Shown piece after piece: positions 6,625 through 22,609 of a DNA stretch of 64,000 nt. Each line of letters opens with the position of its first letter. The first letter of the stretch is position 1. The notes under the pieces are model-generated. The model was given only the letters and a program-made list of their open reading frames with translations. It searched no databases and had not been told where the DNA came from. The translations under genes were made by a program, and so were the position numbers. This stretch comes from an uncultured Candidatus Rokubacteria bacterium (GTDB taxonomy: Bacteria; Methylomirabilota; Methylomirabilia; Rokubacteriales; DASRDR01): the NCBI GenBank assembly GCA_963805625.1, contig CAWDVE010000019.1, forward strand, positions 64,001 through 128,000, given 5' to 3'.

Positions 6625-6929
6625 GCCGCCGGGCGGGGGAGCCGCGACCCCGCGGGCGTTCAGCTCGTGGCGATGCGCCGCGTGCCCGAGCCCTGCGCTG
6701 CGCGCTCGAAGATCTCGCGGATGACGGCGGCTTCCGCCTCGTTGATCCGCCGTTCCACATGGAGCGGCTTCGGTCGACCCGTGACAGGATCGGGAGGGCT
6801 CACCTCGATGTTGTCGTACCCGTAGACGGCACCGCCCGCGACATAGCCGGCGCGAGCCTTTCGCACCGGGGCGTCGTGGGTTCGCTGTCGAGCCTTCTCG
6901 CGCTCCATCTCGTCGGCAAAGGCGGTCAC
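6625..6929 (-). pseudogene. Large serine recombinase remnant (helix E + recombinase domain fragment)
   Basis: AFADEMEREKARQRT...GG.VYGY...INEAEAAVIREIFE...GTRRIA, then a frameshift to LNARGVAAP. Catalytic N-terminal domain absent. Confidence 0.85.
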
Positions 6930-9576: not shown

Positions 9577-10302
9577 TTATTTGTACTTGTCGTGATAACG
9601 GACCCAATATTGTCCCCGGTTGCCCTCGTCGCGCCCTTTGGGAACCAGATCGAGAAGGTGATAGGTGCCGTTCAGGATATCGATGCCCCGCGCGTAGGTG
9701 GAGTAGGTATGATAGACGTCGCCGCGCCGGTCCTTATAGAACACGCTCGCTCCTTCGCGGTCCGTGAAGCCGGCGCTGGTTTTCTCATAGTTGAAGAACG
9801 CCGTCCCCTTCCGGTTTTCCTCCGGCGTGAACGACGCATAGAAGTCATAGTTGAAATCGCTGCCGCCCGAGGAGAGCCACTTGAACTTCCAGCCCATGCG
9901 TGTCTGGAACTTCTTGATCTTGGCGAAGGGGGCTCGGGAAATGGCCACCAAGGTCGTGTCACGATGATTCAGATGAACCTGCGCGCCGTCGTAGTGGTCG
10001 GCCCAGAACGAGCAGTGCGGGCAGCCGGCACTCCATTCCGGGGGGAACATGAAGTGGTACACGATCAGCTGGCTGCGTGTTCCGAAGAGCGCGGACAGCG
10101 TTTCTTTTCCGTTCGGCCCGTCGAAGACGTAGGCTTTGTCCACTTTCACCCAGGGGAGACTGCGCCGATCCCGGTTCAAGCGATCGCCCAGGCGGGTGTA
10201 CCGTTTCTCCCTGGCCAGGAGGGCCCTGCGGGCCGCGAGCCACTGCCGCTCCGAAACGACCTTGTGGTTGTGCACTTTTCCGTCGGCGTGGATCGTGGGC
10301 AT
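9577..10302 (-). CDS. DUF899 thioredoxin-like protein
   Basis: WLAARRALLAREK, LPWV, QLIVYHFMF, GCPHCSF, YHTYSTYARG, VRYHDKY. Confidence 0.92.
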   Translation of the reverse strand: MPTIHADGKVHNHKVVSERQWLAARRALLAREKRYTRLGDRLNRDRRSLPWVKVDKAYVFDGPNGKETLSALFGTRSQLIVYHFMFPPEWSAGCPHCSFWADHYDGAQVHLNHRDTTLVAISRAPFAKIKKFQTRMGWKFKWLSSGGSDFNYDFYASFTPEENRKGTAFFNYEKTSAGFTDREGASVFYKDRRGDVYHTYSTYARGIDILNGTYHLLDLVPKGRDEGNRGQYWVRYHDKYK

Positions 10303-10314
10303 GGCGAACTCCCT

Positions 10315-10863
10315 TTAGGCCGGCCGCTCGATGGCGCGGCTCAGGTCCAGTCTGAGTTTCTGTTCCCAAGAGGGGAACGTGATTGTGCCGCTGTCGCCTT
10401 CGGGCCCCTCGCGCTGTTGCTCCTCGGTGAACCGGACGTTGAAGTCGCTGCCGAGCGAGGACGCCCAGGGAAACGTCCACCCCATCCGCCGCTTGTACGC
10501 CTGCAGCTTCGCGAGCGGCGCCCGCGACACCGCCGAAAGCGTGACGTCGTGGTTGGCCAGGTGGACGACGAAACCGGCGAACCCGTCCGCGATCGCCGAG
10601 CAGGACGGACACCCCGCCGTGTAGTCGGGCCCGAACATGAAGTGGTAGACGAGGAGCTGCGAGCGCCCTCGGAAGAGGTCTGCCAGCGAGGCGCTCCCCT
10701 TGTCGGTCTCGAATCGATATGCCTTGTCGATCCGCACCCACGGCAGCGCCTGCCGCCGCCGCGCCAGCTCGTCACTGCGCCGCGTGAGCTCCTTCTCCGC
10801 CTCGAGCAGCTCGCGCCGCGCTGCGAGCCACTCTTTCCGTGTCCCGGTCAGGTGCTTCGTCAT
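10315..10863 (-). pseudogene. Second DUF899 paralog, C-terminally truncated
   Basis: ATG 10863; QLLVYHFMF...GCPSCS...WASSLGSDFN, then diverges and lacks the HTYSTYARG/RxHD C-terminal region. Confidence 0.75.
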
Positions 10864-11597
10864 CGCTCTTCTCTCCTTCGGGTGTCCTTCGTCGTTCGTG
10901 TCGACGGGGCCCGAGTAGACGCCGAAGACCGAGGTGCCCTGCGCCCCGAGGAGGGCTTGCGCACGGCGCGCACCGTGCCGCTGGTGCCCCCGCCGCAGTA
11001 GAAGACGCCGGCGCCGTCGGCCTCGAGGCCGGTCACGGCGACGCCGGCGGGCATCTCGAGTCGCTCGAGGACCTCGCCCGTCTCCGGATCGATGCGGCGG
11101 AGATCGCTCTGCTCGCCCTCCAGGGTGCCGTGCCAGAGCTCGCCGTTCACCCAGGAGACGCCGGTGACGAAGCGATCCGATTCGATCGTGCGCAGGATGG
11201 CGCCGGTCGCGGCGTCGATCTGGTGGATCTTGCGGGCGCGGTACTCGCCGACCCAGAGCGTCCCCTCGGCCCAGGTCAGGCCCGAGTCGCGGCCGTGGGC
11301 CGGCGCCGGGATGGTGGCCACGACCTGCCCCGAGCGCGGATCGACCTTCTGGATCCGGTCGGCGGCGAGCTGCCAGAGGTATTCGCCGTCGAAGGCGGTG
11401 CCGGCGTCGGCGGCGACGGCGAGCTCGCGGACCAGCGCGCCGCCGCCGGGATCGAGGGCGACGAGGCTCTCGCCGCGGGCGAACCAGACGTGGGCTCCGT
11501 CGACGGTCACGCCGTGGACGTGGTCGATGCCGGGATAGGGGCCGTACTCGCGGAGGATCTCCGCCTGCCGGACCTTGGTCGTGCGCGTCCTCGCCAT
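10860..11597 (-). CDS. Glutaminyl-peptide cyclotransferase-like beta-propeller protein
   Basis: Repeated blades (VHGVTVDG, AGTAFDG, SGLTWAEG, TGVSWVNG, TGLEADG). Confidence 0.8.
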   Translation of the reverse strand: MARTRTTKVRQAEILREYGPYPGIDHVHGVTVDGAHVWFARGESLVALDPGGGALVRELAVAADAGTAFDGEYLWQLAADRIQKVDPRSGQVVATIPAPAHGRDSGLTWAEGTLWVGEYRARKIHQIDAATGAILRTIESDRFVTGVSWVNGELWHGTLEGEQSDLRRIDPETGEVLERLEMPAGVAVTGLEADGAGVFYCGGGTSGTVRAVRKPSSGRRAPRSSASTRAPSTRTTKDTRRREER

Positions 11598-11606
11598 GAC
11601 CCGAGA

Positions 11607-12833
11607 CTACCCAACTGGCAGCGCGCCCGGGAGTAACAAGGTTGTCGCGAATCCGCCGAGCGGCGGCGCGAGCCAGCGGCGGGAGCGACCGCGGCCGACG
11701 GCGCGCACCGCCGCCGCGTCTTCGAGCGGGCGCAGCGCGCGCTGGACGGTGCGCTGGCTCGAGCCGAGCGCACACGCGAGCGCCGAGGTCGACCACGCCT
11801 CGCCGCCCTCGAGCAGGGCGAGGATGGCACCGGCAGGACCGTCGATCGGCGGCGCCAGCACGACGACGGCAGGGGCGCCGATGGGGACGAGCGCGAAGCC
11901 GCGCCGGGTCGCCTCGATGCGGGCAAGCGGGCGCAGGGCGGCGCGCAGGCGGCCGAGCTCGACGCGGAGCCGGGCGCGGTACGACTCGTCGGCGGCGCGC
12001 GTCTCGAAGGCGCGCTCGACGAGGCGATCGCGCGGCACGTCGGCCGGCCAGGCCTCGGCGAGCGCGCCGACGAGGGCGAACAGGACCGGGCGTCCGGCGA
12101 GCGGGACGGAGCGCGCCGGGCCGCGCACGGCGCGCCGGCAGGCGTCGACGACGAGGTCGCCGGACGCGAACAGGGCCTCGACCTCGTCGAGGCGGATCGG
12201 CCGGACCACGCCGCCGCGGATGAGGCGGGCCGACGGCGCCGATAGGGCGCGCCGGGCCCGGCCGATCTCGGCGACCAGGGCCGGGATGCCGGCGGCGAGG
12301 GCGGCGGCGTGGGCGCGGCTGAGCGCGGCGGCGGCGTCCGCGACGCGGACGCGGCGGAGCGCGAGCTCGGCGCGGGTGAGCTCGGCGCGGGCCGCGAGCG
12401 GCGGCGGCGCGCCGGCGGCGTCGACGTCGACCGCGGCGAGCGTCTGCTCGGCGGCCTCGAGCTCGCCGACGAGGAGCTGGCGGCGCGCCCCGACGAGGCG
12501 GGCGTGGAGCGCGTTGGCTCGATCACCGAGCGCGTCGAGCGCCTGGGCGGCGGCGTCGAGCGCGCGCACCGGACCGCTCAGATCGCGCGCCGCGAGCGCG
12601 ACCTCGGCCTCGGCGATCTGGCAGCGCGCCTGGGCGAGGCGCTCGCGGGTGCCGAAGCCGCGGGCGGCGCGCCGGAGGAGCTTGCGCGCCCGGTCGTAGT
12701 CGCCGAGCTGGGCCATGGCGATGCCGCGCAGGGCGAGGGCCGGCGGGTCGTCGCGCAGCGCGACGCGCTTCAGTGCGGCGAGCGGATCACCCGCCGCCAG
12801 CGCGCGCGCGGCCGAGGCGACGAGGGAGTCCAT
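11607..12833 (-). CDS. TPR-like / winged helix-turn-helix putative transcriptional regulator
   Basis: MDSL...AARALAAGDPL.ALKRVALRDDPPALALRG N-terminus, OmpR-like wHTH (RARLRVELGRLR), C-terminal HTH WSTSALA..LGSSQRTVQRAL. Confidence 0.8.
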   Translation of the reverse strand: MDSLVASAARALAAGDPLAALKRVALRDDPPALALRGIAMAQLGDYDRARKLLRRAARGFGTRERLAQARCQIAEAEVALAARDLSGPVRALDAAAQALDALGDRANALHARLVGARRQLLVGELEAAEQTLAAVDVDAAGAPPPLAARAELTRAELALRRVRVADAAAALSRAHAAALAAGIPALVAEIGRARRALSAPSARLIRGGVVRPIRLDEVEALFASGDLVVDACRRAVRGPARSVPLAGRPVLFALVGALAEAWPADVPRDRLVERAFETRAADESYRARLRVELGRLRAALRPLARIEATRRGFALVPIGAPAVVVLAPPIDGPAGAILALLEGGEAWSTSALACALGSSQRTVQRALRPLEDAAAVRAVGRGRSRRWLAPPLGGFATTLLLPGALPVG

Positions 12834-13750: not shown

Positions 13751-14074
13751 CTAGGGGCGGACCTCGACGTGGGTGACGAGGTTGCGTCCTCCGTCCACGT
13801 TGTAGCGCAGCATCACGGGGACGCCAGCCTGTAGGAGGTCCCAGCTCGGGACCACGGGGGGAGGGACGACATACTCCTGCCCGTTGTCGAGCCTGATGGT
13901 GCGTCCCTGCTGGTCCACGCGGCTGATCCGCCCCTCGACGACATCTCCCTGCACGACGCCCCGCATGGTGAGGCTCGGGGGGGCGGCCGAGGGCTGGGCG
14001 CTCGCGAGGCTGCCGGTGCCCGCTGCCAACAGCCCGCCCAGTATGACGAACGTCTCACGCACGCCAGATTTCAT
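13751..14074 (-). CDS. Small exported OB-fold-like protein (DUF1344-like)
   Basis: ATG 14074 after GGAGGG; signal peptide; EGRISRVD...TIRLDNGQEY...L.AG.PVMLRY..DGGRNLVT. Confidence 0.7.
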   Translation of the reverse strand: MKSGVRETFVILGGLLAAGTGSLASAQPSAAPPSLTMRGVVQGDVVEGRISRVDQQGRTIRLDNGQEYVVPPPVVPSWDLLQAGVPVMLRYNVDGGRNLVTHVEVRP

Positions 14075-14153
14075 GTCGAAGCCCTCCGAGCTTCCGTTCT
14101 GAGCAAGCCCTGTGCCGTTCGGAGACCGCAGCAGAACCCGATAGAGGCGACGA

Positions 14154-16817
14154 CTATCGGACGGGCGCGACCTCCGGCCGGACCTGCGCGGCAGCGCTCG
14201 AGAGCGCCTGCCGTAGCATCGACTTCGCGCGATCGATGGGAATGGCGAACCCGCCCCGCAACCTCTCGTCCATGACGTGGACGTCGGTGGTGGCGATGCC
14301 GACGACCTGGCCGCGCAGGTCGACCAGGGGACTCCCGACGGACTCCGCCGAGATCGGCGCGTCGATGGCCAGGTTGCCGCCCGTCGCGGAGCCAGTGGCG
14401 CGGATAGTGGCACGGGTAGTCGCCGGCAGCTGGGTTGCCGACCGCCAACCGACGATGATCGCAGGATCGCCAACTCGCAGCCCGCCCGACTGACCGAGCG
14501 GGAGCGCCGCCGGCAGGCCAGTCCCCTCGATCCTCAACACCGCCACACCGGCAAGCTGATCCCGCCATACCTGCTTCACGGGGAGGGTCCGGCCATCGGC
14601 GAGCGCAACCATCAGTATGCTCCCCTCGCGGATCAGGTGATCATGCGTGAGCACATAGCCTCGCCCATCGACCAGGAATCCGAGCCCCGCTTCCGGCGCG
14701 GGCCGTCCGGCCGTAGCCGCCTTTCGGCCATCCGGCGGCGCGAGCAGGATGCGGACGACCGCGGGGCCGACGCTGTCGATCCCCTGCAACGACGCCGTGG
14801 GCGACGGCCCAGGTCGTCTCGAGTCCGTGCCCACGCCCGACCGGCCAATGGCGGCGTCGCCCGGCCGCACTGAGGCGAGGGCAGCCCGCGGTCCACCGGG
14901 GGACCCCGGCGGAGGCGCGCCGCGGATTCCGAGGCTGCTGGGAGACTCCTGCAGCGAGGACTCGGGGACGGACGCGGACGGACGGGTTGCGACGACCGCC
15001 CCCTGTGCTGGTGGGGTTAGACGGGGGGCCGCGGATCCTGGCTCGTCGCTCGGCGTGCCTAGTGTGCTAGACGGGGCTGAGGGCGCGGGGGCCGCGGGCC
15101 CTTGCTTGTCGCTCGGCGTGCCGGATGCGCCGGACATGGGGGGCGCGGCGGGTCCTGCTTTGGCGCTGAACGTCCCGGATGGGGCGGCGGATGGGGGCGC
15201 GACCGCGGGCCCGTCGCTCGATGAAGGCATGCTCAACGGGCCGCGCGCGACGATGGGGGGCGATGCCGCGACGGCTGCCTTGTCGTTCGGAGCCGCGGGC
15301 GCGGGGTCGGCGGCCGAGCCATCGGGGACTCGCGGCTTCGGGGGTGGCACGGGCGGCGGGGGCAGCGCGACGATCACCGATCCCGGCGCAGGCCACGGTC
15401 TAGAGGGCAGAGGTGGCGGGGGATCGCCGGGGCTCGGAATGGGACGCGCCACGGGCGCCGCTCCAGGAGAAGGCGTCGATTCTGCGGTCTTCTCGCCTGG
15501 CGCCACGGGTGGCCTCTCGCTCGGGCGAGTGACGCCGCTCGACGCGCCTGACAACCCGGAGGCGGCTAACGGAGCGGCTCCGCCGGTGCCTCCGGCCGGG
15601 GCCTCCCGCAACGGTATCGGCGCGGATGGCTGTGTCTCCGGTCTTCGCGGTGTGGCGGTGCTCTCCCGATTGGCTGCGGCGGGCGGCGGGACGGTGCCGC
15701 TCGCGGGGCCGGACGGGCGCGACGGCGGAGGCGGCACCGGCTCCAGCCGCGCGATCTGGGACTCGGCAGTGCGCGGCGCCGGAGCGATCCGCGGAGCGTC
15801 GCGCTCGGGCCCGCGGCTCGGAGATGCGGGCGCCGTCTCCCGTTGGCCGCGTGGCGCCGGGGAGACCCGCTCCGCTCCATGCGATGGGCTCACGGGGCCC
15901 GCGGGAGGCACGGACTCAGGGGAAGCTGCCTGGGGGTCGTTCCCGGAAGGAACCTCATTGACCGCAGACGCCGTGTCAGTAGCCGGCGAGCGCTCGTCCG
16001 CGCCGGTACCCGGCGGGAGCTCAGCCAAGTCGGCGGCTGGCCCACGCTCGGTTGATGGCGTGGCCCGCGTCGGGTCCCCGGCGCGACTCTCGGTAGACGG
16101 GCGCGGGCTCACCGATGACCAGTCGCGGGGTGCGCCGGGTAGCGCCCCCGGGGCCCGTTGCGCCAAGCGATCCAGAGATCCCGTGGACTGGAGGAGTGAC
16201 CACGCGATCGGCAGCAGAACTATGCCCGCGACGGCGGCCGCGAGTGCAGAGCGTGCGAGCTGTGTGCGGCCGCGTCGCCCCTCGCATACGGGACACCGGA
16301 TGAACTCGGAAACCGTCGGCGCCACGCATGGCTTATCGTGACGCCAGCGGCTGCGACAGGCCGGGCACGCGTGTAGATGGCTCCCCCGGCTCGCCACCAC
16401 CGCCGATGGGTCGTCGGAGAGGGGCATGCACCACGGGCAACCAGCAATCGGCGCCAGGACACACCGACCCTTGTGGCTCCAAGTGGCGTCGCAGAAGCCG
16501 CAGCGGTGATCGTGGGGCCCGCGGAGAAGTAGCTCGTCCCGACCGGAGCACAGCGGGCACGCCGCCGCGTCGAGGGTGCCAGCATCTCCTCCCGCGGCGC
16601 TACCGAGTCGTTCATAGACGGCATCGACCGGCAACTTGCACCCTGGCGCCGTGGGGCCGGCGTGAAACCACCGGTGATGATTCTGGCAGCGATGCCGATG
16701 CCCTTCCTCGAGCCTCGCCGACTCCGCGCCCACGGTCTCTGGGTCGAGCCGGGCGCCCGCTGCCGCACGACGCGGTCCCGCGGGGGGGCTTGAACGCTCA
16801 CGGAGGCGAGGAGCCAT
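14154..16817 (-). CDS. Membrane protein: three His/Cys repeats + TM + Pro-rich linker + trypsin-like (HtrA/S1C) domain with degenerate active site
   Basis: N-terminal HxHxC...WxH...C...CPxC x3; TM at ~aa190-208; GLGFLVDGRGYVLTHDH, LPLGQSGGLRVGD, GSPLVDLRGQVVGI, GFAIP. Confidence 0.8.
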   Translation of the reverse strand: MAPRLRERSSPPAGPRRAAAGARLDPETVGAESARLEEGHRHRCQNHHRWFHAGPTAPGCKLPVDAVYERLGSAAGGDAGTLDAAACPLCSGRDELLLRGPHDHRCGFCDATWSHKGRCVLAPIAGCPWCMPLSDDPSAVVASRGSHLHACPACRSRWRHDKPCVAPTVSEFIRCPVCEGRRGRTQLARSALAAAVAGIVLLPIAWSLLQSTGSLDRLAQRAPGALPGAPRDWSSVSPRPSTESRAGDPTRATPSTERGPAADLAELPPGTGADERSPATDTASAVNEVPSGNDPQAASPESVPPAGPVSPSHGAERVSPAPRGQRETAPASPSRGPERDAPRIAPAPRTAESQIARLEPVPPPPSRPSGPASGTVPPPAAANRESTATPRRPETQPSAPIPLREAPAGGTGGAAPLAASGLSGASSGVTRPSERPPVAPGEKTAESTPSPGAAPVARPIPSPGDPPPPLPSRPWPAPGSVIVALPPPPVPPPKPRVPDGSAADPAPAAPNDKAAVAASPPIVARGPLSMPSSSDGPAVAPPSAAPSGTFSAKAGPAAPPMSGASGTPSDKQGPAAPAPSAPSSTLGTPSDEPGSAAPRLTPPAQGAVVATRPSASVPESSLQESPSSLGIRGAPPPGSPGGPRAALASVRPGDAAIGRSGVGTDSRRPGPSPTASLQGIDSVGPAVVRILLAPPDGRKAATAGRPAPEAGLGFLVDGRGYVLTHDHLIREGSILMVALADGRTLPVKQVWRDQLAGVAVLRIEGTGLPAALPLGQSGGLRVGDPAIIVGWRSATQLPATTRATIRATGSATGGNLAIDAPISAESVGSPLVDLRGQVVGIATTDVHVMDERLRGGFAIPIDRAKSMLRQALSSAAAQVRPEVAPVR

Positions 16818-17167
16818 GGGTGATGGAGGCGTTCAATTGCTGTGCCGATGGCCGAGGTCGGATTCAGGGGCCGTTCGGCGGGGAGGCATCGGCCGTGAGA
16901 GCAGGCGCCACGCCTAGGGACGTCATGATGTCGTTGGAACGACAACTCGTCACCGCGGCCGCCGTTAGCAAAGCGTCCGACCACGGGCGTGCGCCGGTCC
17001 TTCCCCGACCCGGCGCCATGGCAGCCCGATCGAGCGCGTAGCCGCGGCAGTGGTACCCGGGTTGCAAAGATGGTCCCGTATTGTCGGACACGACCCAAAT
17101 GCGTCACGTGGCTCGACCCCGCCCCAGTGCTGATCGGATCACCGCGTGCGCGCTTCGGAGGCCCGGC

Positions 17168-19192
17168 ATGAAGGCGCACTGGCGATCGACTCTGGCCCTC
17201 GGCGTCATTGCATGTGTCGTGCTCGACTCCGTGTGGATCACCGGGTCCGTTCTTCATCTTGATCGCCTCGCGTCCTTTGCGAAAGACGGAAAGGGAGGCG
17301 GAGGCGGCGACAAAGGCGGAGGCGGCGACAAGGGCGGAGGCGGCGGCAAAGGCGGAGGCGGCGACAAGGGCGGAGGCGGCGGCAAAGGCGGAGGCGGCGA
17401 CAAGGGCGGAGGCGGCGGCAAAGGCGGAGGCGGCGACAAAGGCGGAGGCGCGGACACCGCCGGCGCGGCCGGTAGTGGCACAAGTGGCGGCGGCACCAGC
17501 GGGTCGGGCACGGGCGGGGCGGCAGGTACCGGCGGCGGGGGCGCGGGGACGGGCGGCGCGAGTGGCGTCGGCGGCGCAGGCAGTGGTGGCGCGGCCAGCA
17601 CGGGCGGCGTCGGTACCGGTGGCGCCGGCGTCGGCGGATCTGGGACGGAGAGCTCCGGAGCTGCGGGCTCCGCGACCGGTGGGGCGGGCGCGGGCGGTGT
17701 CGGAGCGAGCACCGGTAGTTCGGGGGCCGAGACCTCCGGAGGGGGCACCAAAGGCGGCGGGGTCGGAGTAGGCGTCGGCGATCCCGGGAAGATTGGCGCC
17801 AAGGGCAGCGCCGCGACGGGCACGGGGGCAGGAGCCACGGGTGACGGCGGCGTCAGCACTGGCCGTGGCGCGAGTGGAGTCAGCGCGGGCGGGGGACTCG
17901 GCCAAGGCGGTCACGGCACGAGCGGGGGCAACGGGTCGAGCGCGACGAGCCCGGGCGCGACAAGCCTCGGGTTGAGTAGTGAGCGGAGCCCGGCGGCGGC
18001 GCCCGCAACGGGAACGGCCGGGCCGCAAGGATCGACGTCGAGCGGGGACCTTACACGGGGCGCAGCCGCGGTAATCGACATGGATCGGCCGGAGCCCTCG
18101 CAGACCGGTGGCGTCACGGACGCCCCGGCCATGGGGCGCGAGAGTGCCGAGGCGGCGGAAGTCGCGGCACGAGCAGCGCGCGAGGCGGCGGAGACTGCAC
18201 GCGCAGCGGCCGCACAGCTCGGCGAGGTTGCGACACGCGCACGCGGGCCGGTCGCCATCGCGGTGGCGGACGCTGCCCAAGGCGCTGTGCGGATGGCGGC
18301 GGAGGCCGCCCAGGTCGCGGCTGACGCGGCGCTTGAAGCGCAGAGTACGGGCGCGAGCCGGCCGACGGAGGCAGCCAGGGCCGCAGACCGCGCGCGCCAG
18401 GCGGCGGCGCGCGCGCAAGAGGCCGCGGACGAGGCAGCCGACGATCTGCGTCAGATTGCGGCGGCTCCGCCGCCGGAGCCGGCACCGGAGTCCGGGCCGA
18501 TGCGGCAGAAGTGGGACGCGCGAGCGGCGTTCGCGCGGGGCAAGGAGCTGTACGAGGCACGGGATCTCGCTAACGCGCGTCCGCATCTCGAAGAGGCGGT
18601 GCGCCTGGACCCGGAGCACGACGCGGCGCGGGCGTTGCTGGGGTGGCTGGAGTACTTCAGCGGATCGCCGGAGGCAGCCATCGTGACGTTCAAGACGGCG
18701 CTCCGCCGCCAGCCGACGTGGGAGGGGCTGTACAACGGGCTGGGATGGAGCCGGCTGCAGCTGCACCGGCCGTCTCTGGCTTACGATGGGTTCCGAGCCG
18801 CCCTGGATGCCAACCCCCAGTACACGGACGCGCTGGCCGGTCTCGGGCTCGCGCTCTATGAATTGGGGCAGTACGCGATGGCGGTGCCAACCCTGGACCA
18901 GGCCGTGGGAACCCTCGAGGGCGCGCTGGGGCGCGGGGCGCCCGAGCTCGTGGACCTGCGCGAAGCCATCGCGTGGAGTCTGTACCGGAGCGGACGGTAC
19001 GGAGAAGCCGCGGTCGAGTTCGAGCGGGTGGTGCAGGCGCGGCCGGAGCGGCCGGGGCTGCAGGCGGCATTGGGGTGGGCGTACCTGAACGGGGGCCGCC
19101 GGGGCGACGCTCGGGTGGCGTTCCAGCGGGCGCTCGAGCTGGCGCCGGACTCGCGGGACGCTGCGCGCGGTCTCGCGCTCGCTTCCCAGTGA
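17168..19192 (+). CDS. Secreted Gly-rich repeat / Ala-rich coiled-coil / TPR protein
   Basis: ATG 17168 after GGAGG; signal peptide; GGGG(D/G)K repeats; C-terminal TPRs (EAVRLDP, LYNGLGW, ALAGLGLAL, AALGWAYL, RALELAP). Confidence 0.82.
   Translation: MKAHWRSTLALGVIACVVLDSVWITGSVLHLDRLASFAKDGKGGGGGDKGGGGDKGGGGGKGGGGDKGGGGGKGGGGDKGGGGGKGGGGDKGGGADTAGAAGSGTSGGGTSGSGTGGAAGTGGGGAGTGGASGVGGAGSGGAASTGGVGTGGAGVGGSGTESSGAAGSATGGAGAGGVGASTGSSGAETSGGGTKGGGVGVGVGDPGKIGAKGSAATGTGAGATGDGGVSTGRGASGVSAGGGLGQGGHGTSGGNGSSATSPGATSLGLSSERSPAAAPATGTAGPQGSTSSGDLTRGAAAVIDMDRPEPSQTGGVTDAPAMGRESAEAAEVAARAAREAAETARAAAAQLGEVATRARGPVAIAVADAAQGAVRMAAEAAQVAADAALEAQSTGASRPTEAARAADRARQAAARAQEAADEAADDLRQIAAAPPPEPAPESGPMRQKWDARAAFARGKELYEARDLANARPHLEEAVRLDPEHDAARALLGWLEYFSGSPEAAIVTFKTALRRQPTWEGLYNGLGWSRLQLHRPSLAYDGFRAALDANPQYTDALAGLGLALYELGQYAMAVPTLDQAVGTLEGALGRGAPELVDLREAIAWSLYRSGRYGEAAVEFERVVQARPERPGLQAALGWAYLNGGRRGDARVAFQRALELAPDSRDAARGLALASQ
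17297..17449 (+). repeat. Coding tandem repeat, 18-bp unit GGCGGAGGCGGCG(A/G)CAA(A/G), 8.5 copies
   Basis: Counted directly; alternating units form a 36-bp higher-order repeat. Confidence 0.95.
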
Positions 19193-21766: not shown

Positions 21767-22609
21767 CTAGGACGCGCGGCGACGCTGCTTGCGCTCGACC
21801 GCTGGCGTCTTCTTCTCGGTTTTCTCGCGTCCCGCCTTCGCCAGCCCCTTCCGTCCGAGGCTCGCCTTGAGGGTCGCGACCAGGTCCGTCGTCGGCGGCC
21901 GAGCCTCAACCTCGAGGCGTTGGATCTCCTGGCCCGCGATCTTCTGTTCGATCGCCTTCAGGAGCCGCTTCCGGTACTCGTCCTCGTAGTTCTCGGGCTG
22001 GAACTCGGTCCCGGAGAGCTCGCTGATCAGTCGCTCGGCGAGCGTCCGCTCTTGATCGCGGATCTTCGGGGCGGCGCCCTGGTCGATCTCGGCCGCGTTC
22101 TGGACTTCGTCGGCGAAGTAGAGCCGCTGGAGAAGGAGTCCGTCCTGGTGTACGCGGATCGCGATCGGTGTAGTCTTGCCGCGCCACGTGAACGTGCCAA
22201 CTGCGACTCGGTGCGTCTGCTGGAGTGCCCCGACGAGCACTCGATAGCCGCGCTCGCCATTCTTCCCGGCGCCGAGGTAGTACGTGTCTTCAAAGTAGAC
22301 GGGGTCGACCGCACCCTCCGGGACGAACGAGTCGATGACGAGCACCGATGAGGACGCTTGCTCGAGCGCTTTCAATTCTTCCGGCTCGAAGCGCACGTAC
22401 TCGTCCTTGGCGATTTCGTACCCTCTCACCGTCTCTTCGCGCGGCACGATGCCGTGTATGGGGCACTCGAGGCGCATCTGGATCCTGGATCCACACCGCT
22501 CGTGCAGAAGGTGGAATGCGACGCCTTGCGAGCTCGTAGCCGTGAAGAGCTGAACCGGGATGGTAGCCAGCCCGAGAGAGATGTCGAGATTCTTGATCGC
22601 GCGCGGCAT
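21767..22609 (-). CDS. ku: Ku protein (non-homologous end joining)
   Basis: MPRAI...ISLGLATIPVQLFTAT, FHLLH, RGYEIAKDEYV, DPVYFE.TYYL, YEDEY, basic C-terminal tail. Confidence 0.95.
   Translation of the reverse strand: MPRAIKNLDISLGLATIPVQLFTATSSQGVAFHLLHERCGSRIQMRLECPIHGIVPREETVRGYEIAKDEYVRFEPEELKALEQASSSVLVIDSFVPEGAVDPVYFEDTYYLGAGKNGERGYRVLVGALQQTHRVAVGTFTWRGKTTPIAIRVHQDGLLLQRLYFADEVQNAAEIDQGAAPKIRDQERTLAERLISELSGTEFQPENYEDEYRKRLLKAIEQKIAGQEIQRLEVEARPPTTDLVATLKASLGRKGLAKAGREKTEKKTPAVERKQRRRAS

Follow-up and report, generated by a model that had tools for sequence, protein, structure and literature searches.

A lineage-restricted, apparently undescribed two-gene envelope module with an HtrA-like pseudoprotease in a putative Rokubacterium

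A conserved two-gene unit

We describe a pair of genes, A and B, in a 64-kb stretch of DNA (the window) that is part of contig C19 of a 7.27-Mb genome (G000), whose host we infer to be a Rokubacterium. The pair is a real, apparently undescribed and lineage-restricted two-gene envelope module, one that mixes known design elements with an unclassified Cys/His repeat and a new pseudoprotease family. Tentatively, and at somewhat less than even confidence, we hypothesize that A and B are a conserved unit building a membrane-tethered periplasmic binding scaffold or holdase, and not a protease. A preliminary description of the same DNA had placed A, B and a third gene, C, by open reading frame (ORF) calls; all three are found there with the domain layout it gave, and we regard that observation as confirmed. 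The folded domains are under purifying selection, so these are not chance ORFs of GC-rich DNA. Its statement that the architecture could not be recognised also stands, as Pfam, NCBIfam, PDB, fold and literature searches returned no described family; no paper on the A-B pair, or on Rokubacteria with HtrA, was found in a literature search that mostly did not cover subscription papers and could have passed over a mention in a supplementary table. Relatives carrying A or B genes are mostly Rokubacteria, which are predicted to be diderm (PMC5712423), and the envelope system belongs to an abundant uncultured soil lineage. The features of the two genes are as follows.

14154..16817, minus strand: gene A, an 887-amino-acid (aa) single-pass membrane protein with Cys/His repeats, transmembrane helix, Pro-rich stalk, GAPP motif and HtrA-like pseudoprotease domain
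16284..16700, minus strand: three Cys/His repeats (residues 40-178), predicted to be cytoplasmic and putatively zinc-binding (alignments; AlphaFold2 predicted local distance difference test score, pLDDT, 82)
16191..16247, minus strand: transmembrane helix (residues ~191-209) preceded by an Arg-rich stretch in the sequence; predicted N-in topology
14787..16190, minus strand: Pro-rich stalk of 468 aa, 23% Pro, its length varying widely among homologues
14871..14927, minus strand: conserved stalk-end motif [IV][PR]GAPP..GG..L (residues 631-649), a candidate docking peptide for gene B
14199..14771, minus strand: HtrA/DegS-like trypsin domain with a broken triad (H727/G757/V827) and no PDZ domain (Pfam, NCBIfam, PDB, AlphaFold2)
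17168..19192, plus strand: gene B, with an ATG start, a 674-aa exported protein with signal peptide, Gly-rich spacer, Ala-rich helices and tetratricopeptide repeats (TPRs)
17168..17281, plus strand: long signal peptide whose final S-F-A directly precedes the Gly repeats, with cleavage predicted there
17296..18139, plus strand: G4-5(D)K repeats (17296-17450) and a Gly/Ser/Thr/Ala linker, conserved in composition and not in sequence or length
18140..18448, plus strand: helical domain rich in Ala (residues 325-427), with an AxEAAxEAxD motif at its end; in split 'resident' loci it is exported as a protein apart from the TPRs
18521..19189, plus strand: TPR array (residues ~452-670, Pfam) with conserved Trp 493, 518, 527, 603 and 637

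Loci of relatives were gathered with the gene B alignment as query; 183 genomes of the taxonomic order were scanned for both genes, and 251 genomes of the phylum with a longer A profile, many of the genomes being incomplete. With adjacency taken as A and B gene ends within 2 kb, B adjoins 20 of the 26 loci with a long A gene (G000 included), is missing from four, and falls off a contig edge in two. This synteny check across related genomes bears out the earlier proposal that the two large genes form a conserved unit. The divergent layout, by comparison, had been presented as a defining feature and is not one: 13 of the 20 pairs are tandem (B then A, the genes abutting), six are divergent, and one is convergent with a single gene between. 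Approached from the other side, an A-type gene lies within 8 kb in 17 of the 35 B-family loci of a GTDB scan. The A-B link survives both the change of orientation and the change of flanking genes, which differ among most loci (one site is shared in genus g15). In a 33-row tree of B copies (the TPR tree leaves out the partial or frameshifted L077, L090, L095, L097 and L098), all 17 A-linked B copies fall inside one 23-row clade with support of 90/96, short of the tool's star, and these 17 stand apart from the split resident B copies discussed below. Distances among A and among B proteins correlate across 15 pairs (Mantel rho 0.74), a weak result, as the value is inflated by kin that are not independent.

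The repeats of gene A are matched in all 14 genomes of genus g1 plus G000, in the one g6 genome (a single-repeat protein) and in 11 of 17 g15 genomes, while B is matched in 10 of 14 g1 genomes, in four other genera of the window's family and in 10 of 17 g15 genomes. The genus g15 is the sole member of family f2 with either gene, neither being found in the remaining 142 genomes of that family, and the longer A profile found nothing beyond g1 and g15. The reach of the module is limited to this extent, with long A genes in two genera and a function that we infer. The contigs of three B or A-B loci (L079, L081, L085) are short and bear the titles Gemmatimonadales, Eisenbacteria and Thermoanaerobaculia; since L079 has a neighbour in common with the g15 site, misbinning is as likely an explanation as transfer. 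Frameshifts interrupt A or B genes in L020, L064, L066, L076, L077, L098 and L101; several of these are on long contigs, and sequencing error, not gene decay, may be the cause.

A dead HtrA-like domain

The C-terminal domain of gene A is recognised by Pfam as Trypsin_2 (residues 711-841, E 1e-17) and matches HtrA chains in PDB (E 9e-18), and its best NCBIfam match is likewise to HtrA, at 83 bits against a cut-off of 470 and far below the cut-off of every HtrA model. It is in these respects like HtrA/DegS/DegP (S1C) proteases, and its membrane-anchored placement, predicted to face the periplasm, is that of DegS, but it differs from them in its broken triad, the absence of a PDZ domain (none detected by Pfam, the protein ending ~14 aa past the last helix), the 468-aa stalk and the N-terminal Cys/His repeats. 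Relative to HtrA the His is kept (H727), Asp is replaced by Gly757 and Ser by Val827. The preliminary description had reported the loss of the catalytic Ser, and that residue is indeed gone; Asp is lost too, so the damage is not to Ser alone. A full His-Asp-Ser triad is present in none of 83 family sequences and in all of 43 HtrA controls, in agreement with the earlier view that the protease is dead (the 83 are those of 90 family rows that span all three positions, a few rows being the same gene reached by two routes; P0158 and P0200 are ordinary HtrA and were counted among the controls). An active protease using Ser826, one residue off, was considered and rejected, as Asp is lost here too and His is lost in most homologues.

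A profile search added 77 further family sequences among 120 listed matches, and the 12 dead domains placed in a tree form one clade (Shimodaira-Hasegawa-like approximate likelihood ratio test, 99). The ratio of nonsynonymous to synonymous substitution rates (dN/dS) is 0.29-0.42 in five pairs, as estimated by a simple counting method with synonymous sites near saturation. AlphaFold2 modelled the motif and protease segment with a confident trypsin-type fold from construct residue 53, at pLDDT mostly 85-97 within the domain. Judged from its sequence, the domain is catalytically dead yet kept under purifying selection. Some residues are conserved in this family and not in HtrA, namely T-G-G-x-L-A ahead of the former active site together with D-R and L-R of the last helix, and may mark a new binding surface. 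As regards the surface di-histidine metal site of MamO, no His is conserved family-wide among the positions of the dead domain that are at least 80% conserved. The family would represent an independently evolved bacterial HtrA pseudoprotease lineage outside magnetotactic bacteria, held in databases as fragments named as active proteases: gene callers mostly took only the C-terminal 110-350 aa, and the Joint Genome Institute calls many of these 'serine protease Do', which is why the architecture had gone unrecorded. It is important to note that the domain is optional. Five B-linked loci lack it, contrary to the earlier conception of the dead protease as an essential core. Two further trypsin-like genes in G000 without His and Ser motifs (C10:157875-158384 and C20:6065-6571) belong to a clade separate from the A family.

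The stalk-end motif and gene B

Just upstream of the protease domain, the stalk of gene A ends in the GAPP motif, which is present in 20 of 24 long-A loci examined (a count that leaves out G089 C34 and G052 C119). It is the C-terminal feature in all five B-linked forms without a protease domain and is missing from both forms in which the C-terminus has been swapped for a solute-binding domain. Within G000 the motif is found once (E 1e-5, the next best match at 0.005). Because it is kept in every B-linked form that has lost the protease, we consider the motif the best candidate for a contact with gene B. When modelled with its own protease domain its pLDDT is ~50 or lower, with few alignment rows covering it, as expected of a free peptide.

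In gene B and most of its homologues an A-x-A-like site precedes a Gly tract, built in the window from an 18-nt unit in 8.6 copies (17296-17450) that encodes eight G4-5(D)K repeats. Among homologues the unit differs and the tract ranges from almost nothing to over 300 aa, so that the Gly repeats, earlier proposed as a ligand of the dead protease, are unlikely to play that part; the tract reads as a spacer. The Ala-rich helical domain that follows has no match in Pfam or NCBIfam. In the TPR array, the five Trp are invariant in 30 of 30 rows and four of them occupy the ninth position of successive first helices, a position that in general TPR geometry faces the groove. A search of ESM Atlas with gene B returned generic TPR clusters.

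Genus g1 and a related genus share a second syntenic site at which B exists as two separate exported proteins, one with the Gly tract and helices and the other with the TPRs. This resident pair sits behind a histidine kinase and a sigma54 activator (with below-cut-off ZraS/ZraR and AtoS/AtoC matches), and seems to be the ancestral form of gene B. G000 has another split B-like pair at C10:220628-226828, which consists of a Gly/Met-rich exported protein and a TPR lipoprotein-like protein. Transcribed divergently from it are genes for a small exported protein, a histidine kinase and a sigma54 activator; a heavy-metal P-type ATPase lies alongside, and both strands carry sigma54-type sites. Gene identities at this locus come from reading the sequence alone.

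Cys/His repeats

The N-terminal region of gene A contains three copies of the pattern H-x-H-x-C-xx-[C/H]-xxx-W-x-H-xxx-C-x(6-10)-C-xx-C, with a longer insert in the first, amounting to 14 Cys and 11 His within residues 40-178. Across 59 aligned sequences the His, Cys and Trp positions show little or no variation, and a hydrophobic segment comes after the repeats in most A homologues. Since each repeat offers eight candidate metal ligands (His3-Cys5), it may bind two zinc ions. A profile search returned only 80 proteins from 1.84 billion representatives, and the repeat is unclassified. Pfam gave nothing significant (best E 0.0014, to zinc-ribbon models, in two of 16 members; Zn_ribbon_4 at E 0.068 in one of 16), and PDB sequences gave no match at E 1. 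The repeat model (mean pLDDT 82) had no match at E 0.001 in PDB or BFVD fold searches and none at Z 2 among 48,161 chains, though blank fold searches are no proof of a new fold, especially for a small repeat protein. When the repeat region was used in a word-index protein search, no match came up among candidates of 487-1553 aa, and ESM Atlas scores for the repeats were all below 0.8. Being small, soluble and well predicted, the repeat is a direct target for structure and metal analysis.

The same repeat also occurs on proteins of 140 aa (two repeats) and ~60 aa (one repeat), in which an N-terminal hydrophobic helix and basic residues come before it, an arrangement that by the positive-inside rule places the repeat on the cytoplasmic side. 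The stand-alone two-repeat proteins (G000 C19:173817-174251; L029, L030, L031, L032, L114, L115) lie at a syntenic site by a lytic transglycosylase-like gene in genus g1. The ~60-aa micro-proteins, with one helix and a single repeat, are present in many g1 genomes (L103, L104, L105, L106, L108, L109, L111, L112) and have probably been overlooked by annotation; L110 and L113 are single-repeat ORFs without a clear helix.

The tip of gene A is exchangeable: in place of the pseudoprotease there may be ankyrins (P0027), a solute-binding domain of the TAXI type or TctC (L019, L092), or no domain. At the N-terminus, an A-type gene divergent from B (L086:3172-6201) carries an AAA ATPase in place of two repeats, with a below-cut-off match to TIGR03015 (PEP-CTERM/ExeA type, E 5e-56); this fusion was found once. 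Other A-type proteins (L018:8157-10448, L066, P0073) have an extra N-terminal domain ending in DRR..ERR..ERR repeats, without a match in Pfam or NCBIfam.

Proposed mechanism

Direct observation covers the architecture of the two genes, the broken triad, purifying selection, the linkage of A with B, and retention of the stalk-end motif when the protease is lost. We propose a scaffold or holdase in which the Cys/His repeats would bind zinc, face the cytoplasm and anchor or position protein A, while the Trp-lined TPR groove of gene B would dock on the Pro-containing GAPP motif at the end of the stalk. The dead trypsin domain would serve as an optional peptide-binding cap that holds, and does not cut, envelope clients. 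In the sub-clade of the window B may be induced via sigma54, as its split ancestral form seemingly is by the neighbouring histidine kinase and sigma54 activator; in that case the unit would have a role in envelope maintenance or stress.

Several observations weigh against this reading. The A-linked clade also includes six B copies for which the available DNA shows no A gene, and the genomes with long A come from two genera, so that the 20 linked loci represent far fewer independent events. The TPR Trp are equally invariant in resident or unpaired B copies without an A neighbour, where the groove may bind something else. The GAPP motif is present without a B neighbour in G002 C112 and G082 C83, and is absent from the B-linked loci G003 C8 and G004 C28. 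A sigma54-type site precedes just three of ten A-linked B genes checked, and none of top score precedes gene A.

A more far-reaching version of the proposal would have the system unique to two Rokubacteria lineages, with the His3-Cys5 repeat as a new finger that holds two zinc ions and serves generally to anchor proteins in the inner membrane. The anchor would carry any of several exchangeable periplasmic tips (dead HtrA, solute-binding proteins, ankyrins) or no tip, and a dedicated TPR protein docked on a Pro-Gly motif would couple client capture by the pseudoprotease to the cytoplasmic partner of the fingers. We consider this extension doubtful.

Alternatives and relation to known systems

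The pair might instead be, as the preliminary description suggested, a signal relay, of a kind like RseA/RseB: envelope damage would be detected by B or by the dead protease, and A, once clustered or cleaved, would release its cytoplasmic repeats to control a sigma factor or another regulator. The layout, with a metal domain in the cytoplasm, a transmembrane helix, an extended periplasmic part that ends in a short conserved motif, and a soluble periplasmic partner, does recall anti-sigma systems; RseA/RseB and ZraP-ZraSR both combine a bitopic protein with a soluble periplasmic partner, and the split B relatives resemble them further in lying behind a histidine kinase and sigma54 activator. 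Sigma54-type sites before B and C, and the partial replacement of the repeats by a cytoplasmic AAA ATPase in L086, also favour a relay. However, no sigma factor, kinase or regulator recurs beside the A-B pair (neighbour clusters of 54 loci, 67 proteins scanned), which sets it apart from those systems, and a Pro-rich linker of 468 aa would be unlikely to transmit a change of shape. The repeats, moreover, are found on membrane proteins of 60-150 aa without an outside domain, implying a function without a sensor. We consider a relay unlikely.

Marginally less likely still is a positioning scaffold of the ZitP, GltJ or ExeAB kind, in which the repeats would attach to a landmark in the cytoplasm and the stalk would cross the periplasm, with the tip and B recruiting or assembling a machine of the pilus or secretin kind. 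GltJ (or AgmX) has a cytosolic zinc ribbon, one transmembrane helix, a flexible region and a folded periplasmic domain (PMC11135422), and ZitP is a bitopic zinc-finger protein of pilus biogenesis and swarming (PMC5182063); gene A resembles both in its putative cytoplasmic zinc domain, single transmembrane helix, flexible periplasmic region and folded tip. The zinc domain of GltJ and ZitP, though, is a four-Cys ribbon, unlike the His3-Cys5 repeat of gene A, and the GltJ tip is TonB-C rather than a pseudoprotease. The L086 fusion joins the module to a PEP-CTERM/ExeA-type ATPase, and its order of AAA ATPase, transmembrane helix, stalk and tip is reminiscent of ExeA/GspA-ExeB (PMC4098917), but it is found at that one locus, gene A of the window has no ATPase, and no pilus, secretion (including type II secretion system) or motility gene recurs near the pair.

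A third possibility is that the dead domain acts as partner to an active HtrA from another locus, stimulating it or supplying it with substrates, with B as adaptor. A precedent is the degenerate HtrA-family protein MamO, which activates MamE-dependent proteolysis (PMC4794232). G000 does hold several HtrA-like genes with intact His and Ser motifs (seven of ten tblastn matches, an eighth having a near-match His motif). We find this improbable, since no active protease gene recurs beside the pair (a trypsin gene in L093 is unrelated), five B-linked loci have no protease domain at all, and the match to the MamO family is weak (E 0.0015, 17 bits against a cut-off of 800). Like MamO/LimO-type proteins (PMC4794232), gene A has an HtrA-type domain whose triad is degenerate and which is apparently retained for a role other than catalysis; it differs in domain context, in having no magnetosome genes nearby, in that any metal sites would sit in separate Cys/His repeats, and in a linked TPR gene and stalk motif that do not figure in the available part of that account. 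Membership of gene A in the MamO, GltJ/ZitP or anti-sigma groups was rejected, with a score below the family cut-off, a repeat other than the four-Cys ribbon and no sigma-factor neighbour, respectively.

Slightly less probable still is that a single chance event in a variable region brought A and B together and that they have since been co-inherited without joint action. Long A genes are confined to two genera whose kin share neighbours, A is without B in four loci, B is often without A and the flanks resemble variable regions, but the link holds through tandem and divergent layouts and across two families, the tandem genes abut, and A and B distances correlate, even if that value is inflated by kin.

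Gene C and sigma54-type sites

Three further features adjoin the pair in the window.

13751..14074, minus strand: gene C, a DUF1344 exported protein of 107 aa, adjoining the pair here only
14102..14117, minus strand: separate sigma54-type site, 43 nt before gene C, between the A stop and the C start; putative promoter
17051..17066, plus strand: sigma54-type -24/-12 site, 117 nt before the gene B start, inside the 350-bp spacer; putative promoter

Gene C matches PF07076 (DUF1344) at E 9e-8 and 32.3 bits against a gathering score of 23.1. The preliminary description counted it as a third component, a role that is not supported. It was not found beside an A-B pair in any other locus (18 and 35 loci searched), with one homologue ~3 kb upstream of B in G004, and G000 has at least four other DUF1344-like genes. 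Because it is adjacent nowhere else, has paralogues and has its own sigma54-like site, gene C, by its genomic context, does not belong to the conserved module.

Genes A and B are divided in the window by a divergent intergenic region of 350 bp (16818-17167). Sigma54-type sites were scored with a 7-point scheme of our own, based on the -24/-12 consensus; both sites of the window score 7 of 7, a value reached by 15 of 957 upstream regions (38 of 957 reach 6). No sigma70 promoters were found. The two closest gene B homologues, L066 and L064, are also preceded by 7-of-7 sites, and all seven resident loci checked have a -24/-12-type site, scoring 6 or 7, at 108-134 nt past the sigma54 activator.

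Additional observations

A short ORF on the minus strand of the window (6663-6929) resembles a serine recombinase fragment; Pfam gave nothing for it at E 1e-4. The window (21767-22609) and G004 C28 (L092:9427-10221) both have a Ku gene close to the pair, and a DUF899 cluster lies near B-family genes in the window (9577-12833) and in L073:10497-13927; these shared neighbours suggest a common gene pool of variable regions.

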